From Alphaproteobacteria bacterium (GTDB taxonomy: Bacteria; Pseudomonadota; Alphaproteobacteria; CAAHEQ01; UBA3637), in NCBI GenBank assembly GCA_045632845.1, contig JAZQXL010000011.1, positions 2,158-66,157 of the forward strand: a stretch of 64,000 nucleotides of DNA, read 5' to 3'. The notes under the pieces are model-generated. The model was not told where the DNA came from, did no database searches, and saw nothing but the letters and a program-made list of their open reading frames with translations. Position 1 is the first letter of the stretch, and each line of letters begins with the position of its first letter. The position numbers were made by a program, and so were the translations under genes. Of the stretch, positions 12,933 through 22,109 are shown piece after piece.

Positions 12933-13640
12933 ATGAAAAGTATTTTAGAAAAAAAATGGATTGGCCCTCTGCTTGTGTTTTTATTGTCAATTGGAATGTC
13001 TATTTCTTTTTCAGTTCAAATAACCCCTTATCTTAAAAAAAATATCCCCATCATCAATGAAACCATTGATAGTTTTTTGCCTATCACCATACAAAATGGG
13101 GAAATTACACAACCTGTAAATACGGTTATTAGCAAAACCATCTTTTTTGAAAAAAAACCACTCAAAATTGTGTTAGACACACGATCAGATACGCTTGATA
13201 TTAACACTCTTTCTGAAGATGGATGGTATTTTAGCAAAAAGTGTTTGTATTCTGTAGCAGGAGAAAAAAGAGAAAGACAATGTCTTAACGCACCACAAAA
13301 TCAAGAAGCTTTTACCATCGATAAGGGAATTGTTCAAACCTCTTTTGATTATATAAAAGACTATATTTCTTTGCTTTTATATGGCGTATTAAGTCTTCTT
13401 ATATTCTGCGTATTTTATCTGATTATTTTGTTTTACACAGTTATTTTACACTGGATTATTGCTCTTTATTATAAAACAACTTTTGGACAAACGCTTTTTG
13501 TCAACACACTTTTTTATATCGCCTTAATGCTGTTTGAAAAAGCAACCAACATTTACACCAGCTTTTTCTTAACAGCACTCTTACTCATTGTAACCAACTT
13601 GTTCATTTGCAAAAACGCAAATGAGAAGAAAAACAATTAA
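12933..13640 (+). CDS. Membrane protein (DUF1189-like)
   Basis: N-terminal TM, LPITIQNGEI..., VLDT, several C-terminal TMs. Confidence 0.55.
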   Translation: MKSILEKKWIGPLLVFLLSIGMSISFSVQITPYLKKNIPIINETIDSFLPITIQNGEITQPVNTVISKTIFFEKKPLKIVLDTRSDTLDINTLSEDGWYFSKKCLYSVAGEKRERQCLNAPQNQEAFTIDKGIVQTSFDYIKDYISLLLYGVLSLLIFCVFYLIILFYTVILHWIIALYYKTTFGQTLFVNTLFYIALMLFEKATNIYTSFFLTALLLIVTNLFICKNANEKKNN

Positions 13641-13655
13641 TCTTTAAGATAGATT

Positions 13656-13790
13656 AAACAAACAAAAAAACCACCCGATGCGGGTGGTTTTAATTTTTGG
13701 TACAGCCGGCTTTATGCATACCGAGCTAATTATTCAGAGGATTTTAAAAAATTGGCGTTAAAGGTGAAATTCCTGCAATTTTAATTTGAG
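13656..13790 (+). repeat. Junction repeat 1 (distal, attL-like)
   Basis: aaaaccacccgatgcgggtggtttt hairpin, TGGTAC, frame WYSRLYAYRANYSEDFKKLALKVKFLQF* (13698-13784). Confidence 0.9.
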
Positions 13791-13891
13791 GATGCGGGCG
13801 TCCCGAATTAAGTTTTCCCTCGGAAAAAATTCTTGTATTCAAGATCAATCTGTGGTACAATGAGGCACAGTTGTTCATGAAAGGTCATAAG

Positions 13892-14446
13892 ATGACACTT
13901 AACACACCAGATTCTGTTAAATTGATAGAGCCCATCATAGAATACGAAGAACAAATTTGCGCATATCGCAAGGAATTTCTGGATTGCAATAGCTCGATGG
14001 ATGGAACCAACGCACTTAAAAAGTTTGAATCCCCAAAAGATTGGATAGATTATGTGCTGCGTTGCAAGGATCCATGTACTGTGCCATCAGGTTTCACTCC
14101 ATCAACTCAATATATACTAGTACGAGAAAAAGACCAAAAAATTGTTGGTATGATCCAAATCAGGCACTATTTTAACGAGTTCTTGAAACAATATGGGGGG
14201 CATATAGGTTATTCTGTTGCGCCAAGCGAACGGCGCAAAGGATATGCGACCTTAATGTTAAAAATGGTGTTACCAAAATGCAAAAAATTGGGTATTGAAA
14301 AGGTGTTAATTTCTTGCATCACAGGCAACGAAGGAAGCAAAAGAGCCATTTTAAATAACAACGGTGTTTATGAATCAACTGTACATGAGCCAGACCAAAA
14401 TGTTAACTTAGAAAGATATTGGATTGATTTATCTCGTTCACGTTAA
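13892..14446 (+). CDS. GNAT family acetyltransferase (cassette 1)
   Basis: VGMIQIRH, GGHIGYSVAPSERRKGYAT, NEGSKRAI. Confidence 0.9.
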   Translation: MTLNTPDSVKLIEPIIEYEEQICAYRKEFLDCNSSMDGTNALKKFESPKDWIDYVLRCKDPCTVPSGFTPSTQYILVREKDQKIVGMIQIRHYFNEFLKQYGGHIGYSVAPSERRKGYATLMLKMVLPKCKKLGIEKVLISCITGNEGSKRAILNNNGVYESTVHEPDQNVNLERYWIDLSRSR

Positions 14447-14542
14447 GTTTGAGTATAAAATTTCATTTAACATAAACTATTTCGGGGGCTCGTTAAACTT
14501 GAACCAATATAACCCCTTGTTTTACAATAAATCACAAAAAAG

Positions 14543-14715
14543 AGTTCGATAAATTGAACCTTACAAAATCGAACTATTATCGAACAAGCACAAGTGCTTA
14601 AAAACAAACAAAAAAAACACCAGATATGGGTGGTTTTAATTTTTGGTACAGCGTGCTTTGCGAATACCGAGCCAATCATTTAGAGGATTTTAAAAAATTA
14701 GCACAACTGATGTAG
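14543..14715 (+). repeat. Junction repeat 2
   Basis: AGTTCGAT...ATCGAACT..ATCGAAC arm, terminator, TGGTAC, frame WYSVLCEYRANHLEDFKKLAQLM* (14644-14715). Confidence 0.9.
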
Positions 14716-14822
14716 ATTCTAATTTTTTACCATTCGTATCATAAGTCTCACATGATTGACTGTTACGAATATTATTATAGAGAGTACAATCCATTTTTAT
14801 TTTTCCATCTTTATAATATTCC

Positions 14823-15365
14823 TTATAAGAACCATCTAAAAACTTCAGTATTCTTTATTTTTAAATGAAGGGCTGTTTTTTCATACTCATTCCAATCAAA
14901 AGAATGTGGATTTTGACTTAAGTATTTTGCCATACGGATAACACCGCCATGGGTCACAATCAATGTATTTTTTATGTCATCCAATTCATCAAAAAACGAT
15001 TTAACCCGAAGGTAAACATCTTCCCAAGATTCTGCATTTACTTCGTGTGGTGTTTTATTGAAAATATCCCATTCATCTTGAGTGATATCTTGAATGAGTC
15101 GACCTTGTAAATTACCAAAATTAATTTCTCTTAGCCTAGAATCAAAGCGGACAGGTAAATGCAATTTCTCATTGATAATTTGAGCGGTTTCTTTTGCTCT
15201 GACTAAATCTGATGAGATAATATTATCTATATTCAGAGATACTATCTTATCCAAACAAATAAGGGCTTCTTTTCTGCCCGTTTCGTTTAATGCCATATCC
15301 AAATGACCTTGGATTTTGCGTTCCAAGTTCCAATCCGTTTGTCCGTGTCTGAGTAAATAAATCAT
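14823..15365 (-). CDS. Histidine phosphatase (phosphoglycerate mutase family)
   Basis: RHGQT, SSDLVRA, LREINFG, VTHGG. Confidence 0.92.
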   Translation of the reverse strand: MIYLLRHGQTDWNLERKIQGHLDMALNETGRKEALICLDKIVSLNIDNIISSDLVRAKETAQIINEKLHLPVRFDSRLREINFGNLQGRLIQDITQDEWDIFNKTPHEVNAESWEDVYLRVKSFFDELDDIKNTLIVTHGGVIRMAKYLSQNPHSFDWNEYEKTALHLKIKNTEVFRWFL

Positions 15366-15387
15366 CTAAAATCCTTTTTGTTTTTAC

Positions 15388-15873
15388 TTATAACTCTTTT
15401 TCAAAACGGATGAGTGGAACATCAAGTTTCCAAAAGTTTTTACTCGGAGCGTTTGTTTTTATCATCCCTTGTTTTTGATAAAAACCAATGGAAGGTCCAT
15501 CCTTGATTGTCCACACAATTAACTTATTATAGCCGTCTTGTTTTTTTAATCGGCAAATCTCTTTCATTAAAGCGCTTCCGACACCTTGTTTTTGAAAATC
15601 AGGATGAACATAAAGCATTTGAATTTCAACAGCTCTTTCTTCCGGATATTCAAGAGTTAAAAATCCAACAACGTGATTTTCTGTTTCGGCAACATAATAT
15701 TCAACTTCTTTAATACGATTAGCTGTTCGTTCTATCACCGCTTCATCAAAAGGCATATTGTCCAGAAAATCATCAGGTAAATATCCTCGATAACAGGCTT
15801 GGTAAGCATGATAGTGGGCGGATTTGATATCTCTGGCATCATTTGGTATGGCTTTACGAATTTTTAATTGCAT
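15388..15873 (-). CDS. GNAT family acetyltransferase
   Basis: LYVHPDFQKQGVGSALM, GFYQKQG. Confidence 0.9.
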   Translation of the reverse strand: MQLKIRKAIPNDARDIKSAHYHAYQACYRGYLPDDFLDNMPFDEAVIERTANRIKEVEYYVAETENHVVGFLTLEYPEERAVEIQMLYVHPDFQKQGVGSALMKEICRLKKQDGYNKLIVWTIKDGPSIGFYQKQGMIKTNAPSKNFWKLDVPLIRFEKEL

Positions 15874-16750
15874 CTAAAATCTCATCTACTTCGTTTGGAT
15901 AAAGATTCTTTGTCTCCGGAACACTTAAATGTTTTGCCAACAAAATCGGTGTATCTAGTGTTATATCCGGATAATGAACCCGCATTTGTTTAAGGCCTGT
16001 TTCTACATCTGGCGTGTGGGTATCAAAACCATCTGTTTCCAAAGCCTGTTTTAAGGGCAGATAATAGACCCCTGTCACATAAACCACCTCTGCCCATTGT
16101 TCTTTCGGACAGTCTTTATAAACCAAAAAACCCTTATGAATAAAACCCTCGTTCAACCGTAGTGTTGAAGTCTTTTCTCCGTTCAACAGAGCCGGCCAAC
16201 GCCTTTCAACTAAATGAAGCCACTGTTGTTTTGGGGATAAAGCATGTTCTATAAATCCTTTGATAATTTCGGCGGTTTCTTCGGGTGTTTGGTTATCATT
16301 GTTGACAATAAAATCAGAATACGGACGGTTTTGATAGCCTTCCTCATACATTTGCCGAATGCGATTTCTTTCCCAATCGTCCAGTTCTCGCATACCACGA
16401 TTTTTCAAACATTCTTCCAAACTCGGTGCAAGGGTAATGTTCAAAAATCGAGTGTTTTCATCGGCTAGAGCAGACCATTTTTGATAACTTTCTTCTGAAA
16501 TCGGATAAGCGAAGATAACGGTTTCAAACTCTTCACCTTCTTTTAATGCCAATAACTTTTCATTCAGTCGTTTTTTTCGTTCTGCCCACCCTTCTTTTAA
16601 GGATAAGCCGATTTTTTCTTGTTCTTCATCGCTCATCAGTTCATCCACTTCAATAAAAGTGGCATTTGGAAGTATATTTACCAAAATCTTAGAAACAGTT
16701 GTTTTGCCTGAATTGATTGGCCCATTGATGTTCAGTATTAGCATAAACAA
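15854..16750 (-). CDS. P-loop nucleotide kinase (AAA-like) fused to an ASCH-like domain
   Basis: GPINSGKTT Walker A, LEECLKNR lid; C-terminal LLNGEKTSTLR (ASCH GxKxxxxR). Confidence 0.65.
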   Translation of the reverse strand: MFMLILNINGPINSGKTTVSKILVNILPNATFIEVDELMSDEEQEKIGLSLKEGWAERKKRLNEKLLALKEGEEFETVIFAYPISEESYQKWSALADENTRFLNITLAPSLEECLKNRGMRELDDWERNRIRQMYEEGYQNRPYSDFIVNNDNQTPEETAEIIKGFIEHALSPKQQWLHLVERRWPALLNGEKTSTLRLNEGFIHKGFLVYKDCPKEQWAEVVYVTGVYYLPLKQALETDGFDTHTPDVETGLKQMRVHYPDITLDTPILLAKHLSVPETKNLYPNEVDEILDAIKNS

Positions 16751-16881
16751 TCTTTAACTCCTTTAATACATTTTATATCTTTATCTTTCCAAAATCAATT
16801 ATTTAATCAAAAGACTCTGTGAAAGCAGAGTTTTTTTGTATTCATTCCATAAATAAATCATATATAACCAAAGGAATGAAC

Positions 16882-17378
16882 ATGAATACAGCAATAGAAA
16901 AATTAGATGAATTATTAGCAAAAGCAAGAACTCAACTTATTGAAAAGAAAGGGTTAAAAGAAGAACAAATAGAGTAACCTGAAGCCACAGAAGAACTCCC
17001 TCAACACCCTGATACAGATTATTTAATCAAGGTCTTTAATCACTTAAAGGATTTGGTATACATCAATACTTAATATGAGTTTTCTGAACAGTTTTTAAAC
17101 AAAAACAACTGCGCAAAGAAAAACAGTTTGGGGAACTGTTTTTCTGCGTAAAGCAATGAAACACTATGAGCCAAAATGGCAATTGTAGGCGAATAGATGT
17201 TGGAATTGATTATGGGATGATACTATCAGAACACAGACATCCATCCATAGATGCATTACATTCTTTAATCAAATCAATCAGCGAACTCAGCGAAGCAGAA
17301 ACCAATCATCAAAGACTTGATGCTCTTTACAAAGAATGCCACAGTTTAATTACAAAAAGGTTATTAAAGAACTATTAG
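16882..17378 (+). pseudogene. Decayed ORF with multiple in-frame stops
   Basis: AAGGA RBS + ATG 16882; MNTAIEKLDELL...EQIE*PEATEELPQH...INT* continues coding-like; downstream fragment 17166..17378. Confidence 0.45.
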
Positions 17379-17584
17379 AAGACAGAAATTTAAAAAATTC
17401 GTTAAATGTCTTAAAGTTCGAGGTTGTTCGAGAAATCCAATCGGGTAAAAATCATCAATGTCCGACAAATCCGTTCGGGAAAAATGGTACTAAAATCTTA
17501 AAATATAGGTGTGTCTAAAAGTCTTTATCGGGCAAAGTGACGTGCAACAGTGACGGGAAAGTAAAAACAGGCGAAAAATAAGCA

Positions 17585-17733
17585 TAAAAAAAAGCCCCAT
17601 TTTTAGGGGCTTATTTTATTTTTGGTACAGCATGCTGAACGAATACCGAGCCAATAATATCAAAGAAATTGATGAGTTGTATCGTTTAATTGAAAGCCTT
17701 TCCTTTCAATTACAACTTGAGCAAGTCACCTAA
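17585..17733 (+). repeat. Junction repeat 3 (divergent)
   Basis: Different terminator (aagcccc-attttt-aggggctt), TGGTAC, frame WYSMLNEYRANNIKEIDELYRLIESLSFQLQLEQVT* (17623-17733). Confidence 0.85.
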
Positions 17734-17769
17734 ACCTGCCATGAGGATGGGAGACAAAAAATAATTTGA

Positions 17770-17790
17770 CTATGTCAAAAAATGTCGTAT
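17770..17790 (+). promoter_or_regulatory. Candidate WYL/DriD operator overlapping the promoter
   Basis: CTATGTCAAAAAATGTCGTAT, spanning TTGACT (17766) and TATATT (17788); related motif at 19302. Confidence 0.5.
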
Positions 17791-17810
17791 ATTGGATATA
17801 TAAGGAGTTT

Positions 17811-18731
17811 ATGATGCCATATGAAAAAACAGAAAATTTATTAGATTTAGCAATTTGTATGCAATCAAATCGCGAAGGTGTTAGTCTTTCCGACATAATG
17901 AATCGTTTCCAAGTATCCAGACGAACAGCAGAAAGAATGCGAGACATGATAGTTTCTCGTTTTATTCAAGCAGAAGAAATCGAGGGTGATAATCGTCAAA
18001 AAAGGTGGCGAATTCCTCAAGGAACATTAAAAGATTTTATTCAATTTTCAGCTGATGATTTGGCTTGCTTAAACTTAGCAAAAGATGCTTTAGAAAAAGA
18101 AAAACTATCCGACAAAGCCATTCAATTAAATACAATTATTGAAAAAATTACAGCCTCAATAAAAACAGACACGCTCAGGAAAATAGAACCAGATGCAGAG
18201 GTTTTATTAGAAGCTCAAGGATTTGCCCGTCGTGTTGGTCCAAAAATCAAAATTAACACCAATTATTTAGATATTATAAAAGAGGCTATTTTATCCACTA
18301 AGAAAATTACAATAACTTATAAGAACGAAAAACAAACTGTTTCGCCTTATGGCTTTTTATACGGAAACAAACATTATTTGGTCGCTTATTCTGATAAAAC
18401 AAAAGAATATCGTTATTTTGCACTGCACAAGTTATCCGATGTTCAACTAACTGATAATATTTTCAGAAAAGATGAAAGTTTTTCATTAGAAGATTTTACA
18501 AAAGATTGCTTTGGTGTGTATCGTGAAGATCCTGTAGAGGTAGAATGGTTATTTAATGCGGAAACGGCAGATGATGCCTCAAAATATGAATTTCATCCCT
18601 CACAACAGATGATAAAAAATCCTGATGGCACTTTGACAGTCAAATTTTTTGCTGGAGGTCAAAAAGAAATGGATTGGCATTTATACACTTGGGGAAATAA
18701 AGTTAAAGTCATTAAACCTGAAAGGAAATAA
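17811..18731 (+). CDS. WYL-domain transcription factor, DriD-like (wHTH-WYL-WCX)
   Basis: LLDLA...VSRRTAERMRD wHTH; PYGFLYGNKHYLVA WYL; FHPSQ...DGTLTVKFFAGG..EMDWHLYTWG C-terminus, as recalled for Caulobacter DriD. Confidence 0.9.
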   Translation: MMPYEKTENLLDLAICMQSNREGVSLSDIMNRFQVSRRTAERMRDMIVSRFIQAEEIEGDNRQKRWRIPQGTLKDFIQFSADDLACLNLAKDALEKEKLSDKAIQLNTIIEKITASIKTDTLRKIEPDAEVLLEAQGFARRVGPKIKINTNYLDIIKEAILSTKKITITYKNEKQTVSPYGFLYGNKHYLVAYSDKTKEYRYFALHKLSDVQLTDNIFRKDESFSLEDFTKDCFGVYREDPVEVEWLFNAETADDASKYEFHPSQQMIKNPDGTLTVKFFAGGQKEMDWHLYTWGNKVKVIKPERK

Positions 18732-18735
18732 AAAA

Positions 18736-19317
18736 ATGGAAAGAAAATTTGTAGATTTGAAATATATCGAACCAAATGCAAAAGTTGTTATTTTAGGAAC
18801 TTTTCCATCAGAGGCATCCAGAGATACATTCTTTTATCATAAATCAACCAATCAATTTTGGAAAATAATGAGTGAAATTTTTGGGGACACCCCAATTAAA
18901 CATTTAGAAACTAAAAAAAATGATCAAAAACCCTCACCAGATGAAAACCTACAATTAATAGAAAATAGAAAAAACTTCTTAAAAAAACATAAAATTGGCT
19001 TATGGGATATGATTAAATCTTGCTATATTGATAATAGTAAAGATTCATCCATTAAAGACCCTGAATACAATGATTTAACAACTTTAAAAACAGAATGTCC
19101 ACAATTGGAATGTATTTTTTTTAGCAGCAAAAAAGCATTTAAACACTATCAAAGATATTTAAAACAAGTTGATGAAACATATAAAAATTGGTTAGAGGAA
19201 ATGTCAAATGGAGAAGAACATATTTTACCATCGCCAAGTTCTGCTAATGCTCGTATGGAATTTAATCAAAAAAAAGAAAAATGGCAAAAACTTTTAACTC
19301 AATACGTCAAAAAATGA
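18736..19317 (+). CDS. Uracil-DNA glycosylase superfamily (hypoxanthine/Mug-like)
   Basis: VILGTFPS..S, FYH..NQFW, IGLWD, LPSPSSAN. Confidence 0.85.
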   Translation: MERKFVDLKYIEPNAKVVILGTFPSEASRDTFFYHKSTNQFWKIMSEIFGDTPIKHLETKKNDQKPSPDENLQLIENRKNFLKKHKIGLWDMIKSCYIDNSKDSSIKDPEYNDLTTLKTECPQLECIFFSSKKAFKHYQRYLKQVDETYKNWLEEMSNGEEHILPSPSSANARMEFNQKKEKWQKLLTQYVKK

Positions 19318-19335
19318 CAGATAGGCATTTTATAC
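19302..19335 (+). promoter_or_regulatory. Second candidate WYL/DriD operator plus -10 box
   Basis: ATACGTCAAAAAATGACAGAT (19302-19322) followed by TATACT (19330-19335). Confidence 0.45.
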
Positions 19336-19360
19336 TCTTTTTGTCAAAGGAGTATAAAAT

Positions 19361-20305
19361 ATGCATAAAAATCACATTTCAACATCACTGAATGATTTTT
19401 TAAATGAAATAGAATTTAAAAAAAATCATCCACATACCCCTGTCGGACTTCCAAGTGGTTTAAGGATTTTTGACACATATACAAACGGCTTTCAAAAAGG
19501 AGATTTAATTTTAATTGGCGCTCGTCCTGCAATGGGGAAAACTGCCTTTGCAATTAATATCTCCTATAATATAAGCAAATATTTTTTTGATTTAGAAAAA
19601 GAAAATCAAAGTATAGATAAATGTGTTCTTTATTTTAACTTAGATGGAACAAACTTATCTCTTATCCCTCGTTTTATTAATTTAGAAACAGAATTTTCGC
19701 ATTGGGATAGGATTAATGGAATAAAAGATGCCCAAACAGAAGAAAATGTTATAAATTCGTGTTTATCCCTATCAAAATTACCAATTTATTTATCCAATAA
19801 AGGGCATAATATAAAAGAAATCAAAGAAGAAATACAAACATTAAATTCTGAACATCAAATTGGGTGTATTATCATTGATTATCTTCAATTCATTGAGAAA
19901 CACACAAATGATTATATGGCTATCTTAAATGAATTCAAAAAAATGGCTATACGAATGAATGTTCCAATTATAGTATTAACACAGTTAAAACGATCGCTTG
20001 AACAAAGAAAAAACAAAATACCAAAGTTGTTTGATATTATCGGATACAATCAAAGAAATGATTCAGCTGATAAAATTATTTTTCTATATCGTAAGATATA
20101 TTACCTTCAAAATCAATTACCTCGAAAACAAAAATACGAGCCACAGAATCATTTTAAACAACGATATAAAAAATGGGAAAATAAATGTGATAAAATAATG
20201 AATAAGTGTAATATTATTATTGCAAAGAACCACTTGGGACCCATTGGAAATATAGAGGTTTCATTTGACTGCATGCGTGGCATATTTAGAGATGCTGAAG
20301 AATAG
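19361..20305 (+). CDS. DnaB-like helicase C-terminal domain only (degenerate)
   Basis: GDLILIGARPAMGKTAFA, IIDYLQ, PIIVLTQLKR, IIAKNHLGPIG; no N-terminal domain. Confidence 0.8.
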   Translation: MHKNHISTSLNDFLNEIEFKKNHPHTPVGLPSGLRIFDTYTNGFQKGDLILIGARPAMGKTAFAINISYNISKYFFDLEKENQSIDKCVLYFNLDGTNLSLIPRFINLETEFSHWDRINGIKDAQTEENVINSCLSLSKLPIYLSNKGHNIKEIKEEIQTLNSEHQIGCIIIDYLQFIEKHTNDYMAILNEFKKMAIRMNVPIIVLTQLKRSLEQRKNKIPKLFDIIGYNQRNDSADKIIFLYRKIYYLQNQLPRKQKYEPQNHFKQRYKKWENKCDKIMNKCNIIIAKNHLGPIGNIEVSFDCMRGIFRDAEE

Positions 20306-20317
20306 ATTTTGCACGAT

Positions 20318-20517
20318 AGTTCGATAAATTGAAAAATTGAACCTTACAAAATCGAACAGTTACCGAACCAGCATAAGCGCTTAAAAACAAACAAAAAAAC
20401 CACCCGATGTGGGTGGTTTTGATTTGGTACAGCGTGCTGAACAAATACCGAGCCAATTATTCAGAGGATTTTAAAAAATTGGCGTTAAAGGTGGAACTGT
20501 TGGAATTTTCAATTTGA
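20318..20517 (+). repeat. Junction repeat 4
   Basis: Arm + terminator + TGGTAC + frame WYSVLNKYRANYSEDFKKLALKVELLEFSI* (20425-20517). Confidence 0.9.
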
Positions 20518-20527
20518 AAACTTAAAA

Positions 20528-20917
20528 TTATTTATCCATTATAGATACAATAGGAACTGTTCTATATCTAGGTGTTCCATCATCATATTTGGCAATAGTT
20601 TGATACCTATAAACCCCTATTTGCTTTGCACATTTACCAACAGGATTTTGAATAATTTCCCCATCATAATAATGATGATCATCCCAAAGCAACATCAGTT
20701 GTTTTCCACTTATTTGACACGAAATATTACCTACCTCACAAACTAGCGCCTCAGTTCCTGTTGCTTGAAATACCTCTAAATTTTTTCGTGAAAAACAAGG
20801 TTCTTTACCCATCATTTTATACAAAACTATATCACCGTCTTCAGATTTATATTTTATTTCTTGAGCATTTACTAAAAATGGAATAAAAAATAAAGCGATA
20901 AGCAAGACTTTTTTCAT
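20528..20917 (-). CDS. Secreted Cys-containing hypothetical protein (cassette 4)
   Basis: Signal peptide MKKVLLIALFFIPFLVNA; AGGAG RBS. Confidence 0.7.
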   Translation of the reverse strand: MKKVLLIALFFIPFLVNAQEIKYKSEDGDIVLYKMMGKEPCFSRKNLEVFQATGTEALVCEVGNISCQISGKQLMLLWDDHHYYDGEIIQNPVGKCAKQIGVYRYQTIAKYDDGTPRYRTVPIVSIMDK

Positions 20918-21054
20918 TTCTAAATTTCTCCTTTACCAAAAGTACAAAAAAGTATATCAAACTATTTACAACAAAGCAATACATAAAATATACCTTTGAC
21001 TTCTATATAAAGATTTAAATTATAAAAATGTAAACAGATTAATCTCATCCTAAA

Positions 21055-21169
21055 AGTTCGATAAATGATAAAATTGAGCCTTACAAAATCGAACTATTAT
21101 CGAACCACTACAAATACTTAAAAACAAACAAAAAAACCACCCGATATGGGTGGTTTTGATTTTTGGTAC
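21055..21169 (+). repeat. Junction repeat 5 (tRNA-proximal, attR-like arm plus terminator)
   Basis: Same arm and hairpin as junctions 2 and 4, abutting the tRNA CCA end. Confidence 0.9.
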
Positions 21170-21250
21170 CTCTAGCCGGACTTGAACCAGCATGATCTTG
21201 CGATCAACAGATTTTGAGTCTGTCGCGTCTACCAGTTTCGCCATAGAGGC
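21164..21250 (-). tRNA. tRNA-Leu(CAA)
   Basis: GCCTCTATGGCGAAACTGGTAGACGCG-ACAGA CTCAAAA TCTGT-long variable arm-GGTTCAAGTCC-...-ACCA. Confidence 0.96.
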
Positions 21251-21270
21251 ATTTTTCGCTAGACAAGTTG

Positions 21271-21298
21271 ATTATACTCAATTATAATCCAATGTCAA
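21271..21298 (-). promoter_or_regulatory. Consensus sigma70 promoter of tRNA-Leu(CAA)
   Basis: TTGACA-16 nt-TATAAT on the minus strand. Confidence 0.8.
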
Positions 21299-21326
21299 GA
21301 GTTTTTTTAACAAAAGGACAAAAAAA

Positions 21327-22109
21327 ATGAAAAATATTTCTTCAACCCCCTCATCAATCTTTATAACCGGCGCTTCTAGCGGTATTGGAAGAGCCATTTG
21401 CGCCGCTTATGCTAAGCCAAATGTTCACCTTTTTTTGTGTGGCAGAAACTTGGAACGCCTCAACGCTATTGCAAAAGAATGTAATGAAAAGGGAGCTCTT
21501 GTCCACACTTTTCAATTTGACACAACTGATAAAATAGCTGCAAAAAAAGCCTTATTAGACGCACACGCCATCAAACCACTTGATCTTGTTGTTGCAAATG
21601 CTGGTGTTTCTGGTGGAGTTTTAGGGTTAGAAGATACTGACGCTTCCATTCGCCAAATTTTTGATACAAATATTTATGGTGTTATCAACACGGTTCTACC
21701 CGCTATTGAAATTTTTAAAAACCAAAAATCTGGTCAAATTGCCTTAATGAGCTCAATTGCAGGATTTAGGGGGTTGATGAATTGCCCAGCTTATTCTTCT
21801 TCAAAAAACTTTGTAAAAGCATGGGGAGAAGCTTTAAGGGGCGCACTCAAAGCTGACAATATTAAAGTAAATGTTATTTGCCCAGGATTCGTCAAAACAC
21901 CTCTAACTGATAAAAACCTGTTCAAAATGCCATTTTTGATGCAACCAGACAAAGCTGCAAACATCATCATTGATGGATTAGAAAAAAACAAAGGCATCAT
22001 CGCATTTCCAAAAATTATGCATTTTTCAATTGCACTTTTGACCGCCCTGCCCCGTTGCATAACGAATCCGATTTTTGAGTATTTACCACAAAAAGAAAAA
22101 AAATCCTAA
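21327..22109 (+). CDS. SDR family oxidoreductase
   Basis: TGASSGIG, ANAG, YSSSK. Confidence 0.92.
   Translation: MKNISSTPSSIFITGASSGIGRAICAAYAKPNVHLFLCGRNLERLNAIAKECNEKGALVHTFQFDTTDKIAAKKALLDAHAIKPLDLVVANAGVSGGVLGLEDTDASIRQIFDTNIYGVINTVLPAIEIFKNQKSGQIALMSSIAGFRGLMNCPAYSSSKNFVKAWGEALRGALKADNIKVNVICPGFVKTPLTDKNLFKMPFLMQPDKAANIIIDGLEKNKGIIAFPKIMHFSIALLTALPRCITNPIFEYLPQKEKKS

Follow-up and report, generated by a model that had tools for sequence, protein, structure and literature searches.

Tandem recombinase-less units at an alphaproteobacterial tRNA-Leu gene very probably carry displaced tails of a self-splitting large serine recombinase at their junctions

A tandem array of four small units lies at the 3' end of a tRNA-Leu(CAA) gene, at 13698-21250 of the window, and each of its junctions (J1-J4) carries a short open peptide frame. 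The window is a 64,000-nt stretch of contig JAZQXL010000011.1 from an alphaproteobacterial genome of 1.6 Mb (98.7% complete). It was compared with 80 genomes in 16 genera of the same family, all metagenome-assembled genomes (MAGs) of uncultured gut Alphaproteobacteria; labels such as G027 denote single genomes. We are highly confident that the units are integrative, that they lack a recombinase, and that the junction peptides are C-terminal tails of a large serine recombinase (LSR) displaced by integration. The features of the array are listed below (ORF, open reading frame).

13650-13697, minus strand: putative B-side arm, a terminator hairpin that precedes J1 on its left (fold -18.7 kcal/mol, z = -4.5)
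13698-13784, plus strand: J1, distal array end, attL-like; TGGTAC core, 29-nt site (13698-13726) and 28-codon tail WYSRLYAYRANYSEDFKKLALKVKFLQF with stop (pattern search, nhmmer, frame reading)
13785-14534, plus strand: cargo of unit 1, a GNAT acetyltransferase (13871-14446; Pfam)
14535-14643, plus strand: P arm of unit 1, a decayed, frame-broken LSR 3' remnant (last ∼40 codons, AGTTCGATAAAT...TTATCGAAC...) and a terminator hairpin on the tRNA strand (repeat family; alignment to LSR 3' ends; fold of the homologous arm)
14644-14715, plus strand: J2, internal, attP-like; core, 29-nt site (14644-14672) and shortened 23-codon tail WYSVLCEYRANHLEDFKKLAQLM with stop
14716-17622, minus strand: cargo of unit 2, a histidine phosphatase (14823-15365), a GNAT protein (15388-15873) and a kinase-like/ASCH protein (15854-16750; Pfam)
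16805-17622: right end of unit 2, a 0.8-kb non-coding-looking module with a different terminator hairpin
17623-17733, plus strand: J3, internal; core, 29-nt site (17623-17651) and 36-codon second-class tail WYSMLNEYRANNIKEIDELYRLIESLSFQLQLEQVT with stop
17734-20317, plus strand: cargo of unit 3, a WYL/WCX regulator (17766-18731), a UDG-superfamily protein (18649-19317) and a DnaB_C-like ATPase (19361-20305; Pfam)
20318-20424, plus strand: P arm of unit 3, LSR 3' remnant and terminator hairpin (repeat family; alignment to LSR 3' ends)
20425-20517, plus strand: J4, internal; core, 29-nt site (20425-20453) and 30-codon tail WYSVLNKYRANYSEDFKKLALKVELLEFSI with stop
20518-21054, minus strand: cargo of unit 4, a 129-aa ORF (20528-20917) with no family match (ORF list, Pfam)
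21055-21163, plus strand: P arm of unit 4, abutting the tRNA, attR-like; LSR 3' remnant and a hairpin now acting as terminator for the tRNA (fold -16.9 kcal/mol, z = -4.3)
21164-21250, minus strand: tRNA-Leu(CAA), attB-derived B' side (ARAGORN; Rfam tRNA, 54.4 bits)

The tRNA gene is intact (ARAGORN, Rfam), and its 3' end, GTACCA, is the complement of the common core TGGTAC, in which TGG (Trp) complements the CCA encoded by the tRNA. The core hexamer follows a G+C-rich hairpin and a T run at 13698, 14644, 17623 and 20425 and recurs at the tRNA, giving five sites. Each unit is bounded by direct repeats that copy the tRNA 3' end, as in integrative islands at tRNA genes, and only 6 nt of the tRNA itself are covered by the repeat. 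Folded on the tRNA strand, the hairpins at J1, J3 and the tRNA-proximal arm resemble intrinsic terminators, each with a stem and trailing U's (-15 to -19 kcal/mol, z = -2.8 to -4.5). ORF and Pfam inspection found no recombinase between 13698 and 21164, and no LSR remnant precedes the hairpin left of J1. Rfam gave nothing above threshold besides the tRNA, and neither the small ORFs of 16.8-17.6 kb nor the ORFs of 129 and 237 aa had a Pfam match.

On its right-hand side, every internal TGGTAC adjoins a conserved stretch of 29 nt (AGCnnGCT......ATACCGAGC) and then an open frame. Read from TGG (frame 0), J1 to J4 are open for 28, 23, 36 and 30 codons, compared with 20/12/4/4 and 9/15/10/15 in the other two frames. 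The plus strand across the tRNA 3' end, TGGTAC followed by CTCTAG, reads TGG TAC CTC TAG, i.e. WYL and a stop. The initial annotation had given the four peptides and the antisense WYL exactly as they read, and had taken them for a single start-less peptide frame. The frame is indeed open at all four junctions, but J3 departs from the J1/J2/J4 peptide at about codon 12 (..NNIKEIDELYRLIESLSF..) and J2 ends early, after 23 codons. J1 and J3 are start-less as proposed, but in J2 and J4 the hairpin upstream contains an ATG in frame, 6 codons ahead of the Trp; nothing suggests that it is used.

The 29-nt pattern occurs four times in the 1.6-Mb genome, always in the array (reversed-pattern control, 0), and an nhmmer profile run on the window returned the same four copies and no more. 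With up to two mismatches it was found in 36 of the 80 family genomes and 10 of the 16 genera (control 0 in each genome), often as two to four copies spaced 0.5-6 kb, adjoining tRNA-Leu(CAA) and followed by the same genes as in the window. Its likeness to the tRNA T-arm (GAA.ACC.AGC) is loose and was seen by eye only. Of 56 distinct junction copies gathered from the relatives, 51 keep frame 0 open over 23 codons or more; the other two frames are open to that length in 6 and 2. The tails fall mainly into two classes, WYS.L.EYRA(N/K)HL.DFKKLA...ELLKF (J1, J2, J4) and WYS.L.EYRANNIKEIDELYRLIESLSFQLQLEQ.. (J3).

The origin of the tails is revealed by genes of the relatives. A 111-codon ORF of G045 reads through hairpin and core and on into a tail; its product can be aligned with the C-terminal end of a 517-aa LSR of the window's genome (BLASTP E = 3e-8), and J3 matches this 111-aa remnant with E = 2.9e-15. 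Searching the family with it recovered full-length LSR frames, and 15 LSR ORFs of 506-569 aa were examined. One of these, the 569-aa LSR of G027, runs in frame into a second-class tail and ends ...KGCKTWYSVLSEYRANNIKEIDELYRLIESLSFQLQLEQAI and a stop; its C-terminus differs from the J3 tail at 4 of 36 residues. Six others end antisense inside tRNA-Leu(CAA): two with WYL and a stop (G048 and G042; ...KPFDKLLFSKGCKTWYL), three with WYLWPDLNQH..RF, where the tRNA lacks the TAG (G025, G014 and G075), and one with WYLQSDSN (G062). Paralogous LSRs with the same geometry end inside tRNA-Lys(CTT) (1/15; ...NWWAIRDSNPGPTD and a stop) and tRNA-Glu(TTC) (1/15; ...LWRPQRESNPRY.. and a stop; these cases are L125, G071 and L131, G013), and the remaining six of the 15 have other tails and no tRNA within the fetched locus. 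The G027 and G048 ORFs carry the Resolvase (PF00239), Recombinase (PF07508) and Zn_ribbon_recom (PF13408) domains that define LSRs (Pfam). Three expectations of the initial annotation were thus borne out: P' arms that carry a recombinase tail, serine recombinase genes running head-on into tRNA-Leu (two ending in WYL itself, four in an extended form) and a full-length enzyme with a junction tail, of the J3 type.

A complete element is present on one contig of G048, where tRNA-Leu, a truncated LSR and cargo are followed by an intact 36-codon tail 14.7 kb away. Its TGGTAC cores are direct repeats and both stand in the W-Y codon phase, so recombination between them would rejoin body and tail in frame. 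Eight of the 15 family LSR ORFs end inside a tRNA gene and the G048 tail lies at the far end of its element, as is expected when a recombination site lies inside the recombinase ORF. The LSR-bearing elements of G048 (L069:5272-16771) and G027 (L070:5840-8198) have cargo of the restriction-modification type (IceA-like, N6/N4 and Dam-type methylases, an HSDR_N protein, C5 methylases and NUDIX) and resemble small defence islands.

Codon-level comparison supports a coding origin. The distinct copies were linked in a minimum spanning tree, and nonsynonymous and synonymous differences (pN/pS) were compared between nearest neighbours on it. For codons 11-28 of the DFKKLA-class tails (24 sequences) pN/pS is 0.31, whereas the other frames give 0.76 and 1.88; the differences at the three codon positions number 70/39/110 (synonymous excess, binomial p = 9e-16). 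The tRNA-fused LSR genes are under purifying selection as well (dN/dS, the corresponding ratio for genes, 0.13-0.25 between G048, G025 and G014, three genera). The codon-position bias that the initial annotation asked for is therefore there for the DFKKLA class beyond codon 10, but is not seen for codons 2-10 or for the second class (see below).

Taken with the anatomy of the array, the homology of the tails and the split and unsplit enzyme forms in the relatives, this coding signature is best explained by displaced LSR tails at the junctions of recombinase-less units, a reading in which we place high confidence. The units would descend from elements moved by an LSR clade in which the recombinase gene itself contains the attP crossover, at a Trp codon that precedes the stop by ∼35 codons. 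A circle bearing the LSR and an intact attP would express the full-length enzyme and integrate at the tRNA-Leu 3' end. Integration would split the gene: the body would stay tRNA-proximal and now stop in the antisense tRNA (WYL or WYLWPDLNQ...), its enzyme lacking the last ∼35 residues, while the last 23-36 codons would end up at the opposite end of the element, forming its P' arm, and each junction peptide of the window would be such a displaced tail. On excision, body and tail would be joined again in frame, their frames being compatible by construction. A cognate LSR would move the recombinase-less units, in trans or in cis. One possibility for growth of the array is that the attR-like site serves as a pseudo-attB, the P arm mimicking the native terminator. 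As part of the same reading, and from the pattern of substitutions, the first ∼10 codons of each tail would double as the P' half of the att site and the remainder would be a real coding remnant.

Several observations weigh against this reading. The window's genome has no cognate LSR, so the helper enzyme assumed by the initial annotation is missing; the only clade member there (contig 22, 517 aa, 39% identical) has its own tail and no tRNA nearby, and with the cognate enzyme absent the array may be immobile in this genome. No excised circle was observed, though no search aimed at circular junctions was made. The G027 LSR (contig 4) is not beside the tRNA-Leu of that genome (contig 1), and may represent a free replicon, an internal junction or another arrangement. 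The left arm of J3 is unrelated to LSR 3' ends. Five of the 56 tails are shorter than 23 codons, so decay of tails does occur. Codons 2-10, which cover the 29-nt motif and are nearly invariant across genera, have pN/pS of about 1 without frame contrast (1.09, 0.86 and 1.21). The second-class tails (codons 11-36, 20 sequences) give 0.65 versus 0.64 and 0.72 from only 71 differences, the copies being too alike to decide on a coding signature.

The missing enzyme would also fit an alternative in which the units are dead relics, scars of four full LSR-element insertions from each of which the recombinase was deleted, immobile and with tails of no present role. We consider this unlikely, though it is the strongest of the alternatives. 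The three P arms (at 14535, 20318 and 21055; a repeat of ∼110 bp) align to the last ∼40 LSR codons, but with indels and closed frames, the J2 tail is truncated, and a 60-codon in-frame LSR stump beside the tRNA of G035 looks like an intermediate stage of decay. A survey of tRNA-Leu(CAA) 3' flanks in 30 genomes counted three with a full LSR, one with this stump, 13 with the P-arm motif, two with a J3-type arm and 11 with none of these. However, the P-arm motif, where complete, begins ∼110 bp before the core whatever the cargo, and this common boundary suggests one non-autonomous lineage rather than many independent deletions. Retention of both att arms without a recombinase, with P arms that are LSR 3' remnants, makes the units resemble cis-mobilizable elements (CIMEs). 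Unit 3 has spread horizontally as a discrete module: 17620-20430 is 87-96% identical in at least five family genomes of two genera (G001, G003, G034, G036 and G045) and in three named MAG contigs (local BLAST), the homology starting at 17619-17622 and ending at 20430, at the cores, whereas the chromosome on the tRNA side is only 66-85% identical. The tails are also still under purifying selection. The order of the units differs in contigs from four gut metagenomes (joints 20385 to 13656, 17613 to 21155, 14531 to 20321 and 20483 to 13762), which supports mobility weakly because the joints lie in the repeated arms and the contigs come from other strains (at least 90% likeness). No public run contained more than 23% of the sampled words of 13000-22000.

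Empty sites are present among the same 30 genomes. In four genomes of the window's genus, all among the 11 flanks with neither arm nor LSR, a native hairpin (AAACCCTTC...GAAGGG) directly abuts TGGTACC, i.e. an empty attB; a blastn comparison of the window's left flank with these empty-site genomes gave no syntenic match. The native hairpin resembles one encoded by the LSR codons for KPFDKLLFSKG, which replaces it after integration. These codons (L118/L069 of G048, and L028:1440-1502; compare L097:1440-1502) fold on the opposite strand as a terminator-like stem right after the tRNA, and judged by sequence the stretch appears to double as replacement tRNA terminator and P half-site.

A second alternative is that the stretch after TGGTAC is only the P' half-site of a DNA attachment site and that its open frames are incidental. 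It describes the first ∼29 nt well: codons 2-10 are almost invariant in 10 of 16 genera without any coding bias, and the second-class tails lack a frame contrast. As an account of the whole stretch it is largely refuted and very improbable. The DFKKLA class beyond codon 10 is constrained in this frame only, frame 0 stays open far more often than the others (51/56), and the tail sequence is the in-frame C-terminus of a 569-aa LSR. The conserved stretch, at ∼100 bp, is also much longer than a typical LSR att half-site, which spans ∼25 bp (attP and attB, 40-50 bp). That the peptides are independent small genes (23-36 aa) or C-termini of cargo genes, as the ATG codons of J2 and J4 might suggest, is extremely unlikely, since J1 and J3 have no ATG, a terminator hairpin lies upstream, the long upstream ORF of G030 is an ABC-transporter half that reads through by chance, and the homology is to LSR C-termini.

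Given displaced LSR tails as the preferred reading, what the split does to the enzyme can be judged from structure. The AlphaFold2 model of the G027 LSR (pLDDT 90.5) matches the SPbeta, Bxb1, phiC31 and LI integrases (Foldseek E = 6e-18; VIA Z = 18.0, root-mean-square deviation 15.1, 458 aligned). The solved LSRs align to model residues 23-529 of 569 (to ∼525-529), and the cut falls after residue ∼535; the tail is modelled as two helices, 532-544 and 546-568 (pLDDT 80-90). A complex prediction of the tail (532-569) with the second DNA-binding domain (DBD2) and coiled coil (300-531) gave a median of 0.61, with one control at 0.46, and is given no weight for or against contact. The truncated LSR is expected to be active, unlike split archaeal integrases, because the model keeps all parts that align with solved LSRs and the genes are under purifying selection. 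In SPbeta integrase, according to the portion of the structural report consulted (PMC11722253), an essential helix of the recombination directionality factor (RDF) packs between DBD2 and the coiled-coil hinge, by F532, a directionality-important residue near the C-terminus; by analogy, a removable helix just after DBD2 would be well placed to bias the coiled-coil trajectory. A genuine difference in directionality or stability between the two enzyme forms, as the initial annotation imagined, is nevertheless a tentative idea that we regard as doubtful. The tail might instead be needed for all activity, giving a lock-in as in archaea, or be dispensable, which fits poorly because it is under purifying selection. 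More speculative still is a scheme in which directionality is written into the gene structure. Here the full-length enzyme with its two-helix tail would exist only with intact attP and would integrate, and the tail-less form encoded by the integrated copy would be the one able, or the only one allowed, to excise, without a separate RDF. Because any tail of the array can be rejoined to the enzyme, the tails and the units without a recombinase would together make up an integron-like cassette system that is anchored at the tRNA and serviced in trans.

The crossover is placed at a near-invariant Trp codon because LSRs of the family end in tRNA-Leu, -Lys and -Glu and one carries a junction tail in frame. 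This residue (W534 in G027) is at least 90% conserved in 80 aligned clade members, and the PF of the PFD motif before it is conserved to the same degree. A tRNA of canonical geometry places the antisense T-loop at codons 6-8 after the Trp, where it reads D-S/L-N. A scan of a library of 1.84 billion proteins gave 17,348 hits at E ≤ 0.001, and the best 150 representatives were taken; 22 shorter than 470 aa were left unclassed. Among the 128 classed, 42 carry W-x4-[DEG][SLTW][NDE], the antisense T-loop in frame, 21 reach a stop within 7 residues after the Trp, 11 have a native-looking W-x7-h-R-[TKA] tail and 10 other tails; the sequence anchor is missing in 44, several of which visibly carry ..DSN.. 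strings. The W-x4-D/N-x2-R-T tail named in the initial annotation recurs in these 11 and in the distant LSR of the window's genome, which ends ...WGEICDNLRT.... Most library alignments to the query end at residues 534-537, which together with the tail classes indicates that the geometry belongs to a large, widespread clade beyond this family; outside the family, the peptide signature is our only basis for inferring a tRNA origin of LSR C-termini. The more distant protein P0005, from a database, ends ..LWLGMRDSNPR...

To our knowledge, the att site of canonical large serine integrases does not lie in the integrase ORF. The phiC31, Bxb1, SPbeta and LI/A118 integrases share with the enzymes described here the domain set, the fold and short att sites with a small common core. 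As far as the sources consulted extend, canonical LSRs need a separate RDF protein for directionality, whereas here the reaction itself swaps a C-terminal extension that exceeds the part matched by most solved structures. A self-splitting arrangement appears to be new for serine recombinases, the closest known concept being that of archaeal tyrosine integrases. Self-disrupting recombinases are said to occur exclusively in archaea in the accessible part of a 2021 review (PMC8371274). The suicidal integrases described there (SSV1-, pTN3- and pT26-2-type) likewise have the site inside the integrase ORF, are split to both element ends by tRNA integration and leave fragments that pile up in chromosomes. 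They are, however, archaeal tyrosine recombinases (SSV type, Phage_integr_3), whereas ours is a bacterial serine recombinase, and their split separates or inactivates the catalytic part, whereas here only the last ∼35 residues would be lost, the domains that align with solved LSRs remaining in one piece in the model. Full-text literature, mostly open texts, gave no account of an LSR gene crossing its own attP, nor of LSRs that target tRNA 3' ends; an earlier description is thus possible. In the mycobacteriophage system of integration-dependent immunity attP lies inside the repressor gene, and integration by a tyrosine recombinase changes the C-terminus of the repressor and thereby its stability; here it is the recombinase itself that is altered.

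Integrative and mobilizable elements (IMEs) with serine recombinases are described, in the part of PMC5704250 consulted, as integrating within genes, whereas the present sites are at a tRNA 3' end. CIMEs and tandem accretion arise when an incoming element integrates into an att site flanking a resident one (excerpts of PMC5704250 and PMC12084326). CIMEs of IMEs and of integrative and conjugative elements are, like these units, att-bounded, recombinase-less and in tandem beside a tRNA or gene end; in those excerpts the tandem-accretion cases use tyrosine integrases, whereas our units are LSR-derived. The units are 0.7-3 kb long with one to three genes, up to four per array in several genomes, and because of this small size and number they resemble integron cassettes. 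Integron arrays are also tandem, with promoter-poor cassettes of one to three genes, a recombination site for each, a single chromosomal anchor and a cassette order that varies between strains. An integron, however, has IntI and attI beside the array, and no IntI-type integrase adjoins the array here (the PF00589 hits of the genome, at C20, C11:118690 and C23, are all outside the window, C11:2158-66157), and its cassettes carry attC sites where these carry LSR att sites (no attC folding search was made).

If this account is correct, self-splitting recombinase genes are not a peculiarity of the archaeal tyrosine family, a widespread bacterial serine clade doing likewise at tRNA 3' ends, and at least 42 of the 128 classed representatives bear the antisense-tRNA signature. 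Database LSRs of this clade would then mostly have junk C-termini translated from antisense tRNA. A natural experiment on LSR directionality would also be at hand, in which the reaction adds or removes a helical extension of ∼35 residues just after DBD2. With attP readable from the gene and attB from the tRNA, the geometry would be of use for att-site prediction and for mining integrases for genome engineering. It would also explain the small cassette arrays (acetyltransferases, the WYL/UDG/DnaB_C trio and restriction-modification genes) beside tRNA-Leu in gut Alphaproteobacteria.

Some further observations concern single arms and loci. In the P arms at 14535-14600, 20318-20385 and 21055-21120, three spaced TCGA(A/T)(C/A) words are visible by eye, whereas the aligned LSR genes show two; they may be accessory binding sites. 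The module at 16805-17628 is 85-89% identical to a stretch of contig 23 of the same genome (L036:2069-2752) that lies between a 583-aa tyrosine-recombinase-like ORF and tRNA-Ser(TGA), and in four gut metagenomes its summed contig depth is the highest by a wide margin (up to 166, bin 17214-17514). It may be an arm of a second, tyrosine-type family of integrative elements. Neither this 583-aa ORF nor the genome's own 517-aa LSR ends in a junction tail, and both were rejected as its source. P0002, an LSR of 560 aa with 22 member sequences on 11 contigs, has a C-terminal stretch before the Trp like that of the G045 remnant and of G048-type LSRs, and ends in a third tail type, WYQVLRDYRINYPEELLKWKYKIEHILDDDFYNLAYK, which hints that tails have been shuffled among recombinase subclades.

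On contig 31 of G030 (L018:406-1587) a junction unit directly follows a truncated ABC-transporter-like gene, giving a 393-aa frame through P arm, hairpin and tail. The upstream in-frame ORF (375 codons), considered as the sought recombinase, proved to be a truncated half of an ABC transporter whose frame happens to continue through the P arm. An intact ABC-transporter paralogue lies immediately downstream, which points to an insertion away from a tRNA or to a rearrangement. In G047 (C5:24285-24445, L106) a second, partial tRNA-Leu copy, 76% identical, lies directly beside the tRNA. The end seen there reads TGGTATTTCTAG, and a tRNA-like sequence may have been duplicated in tandem at this att site.

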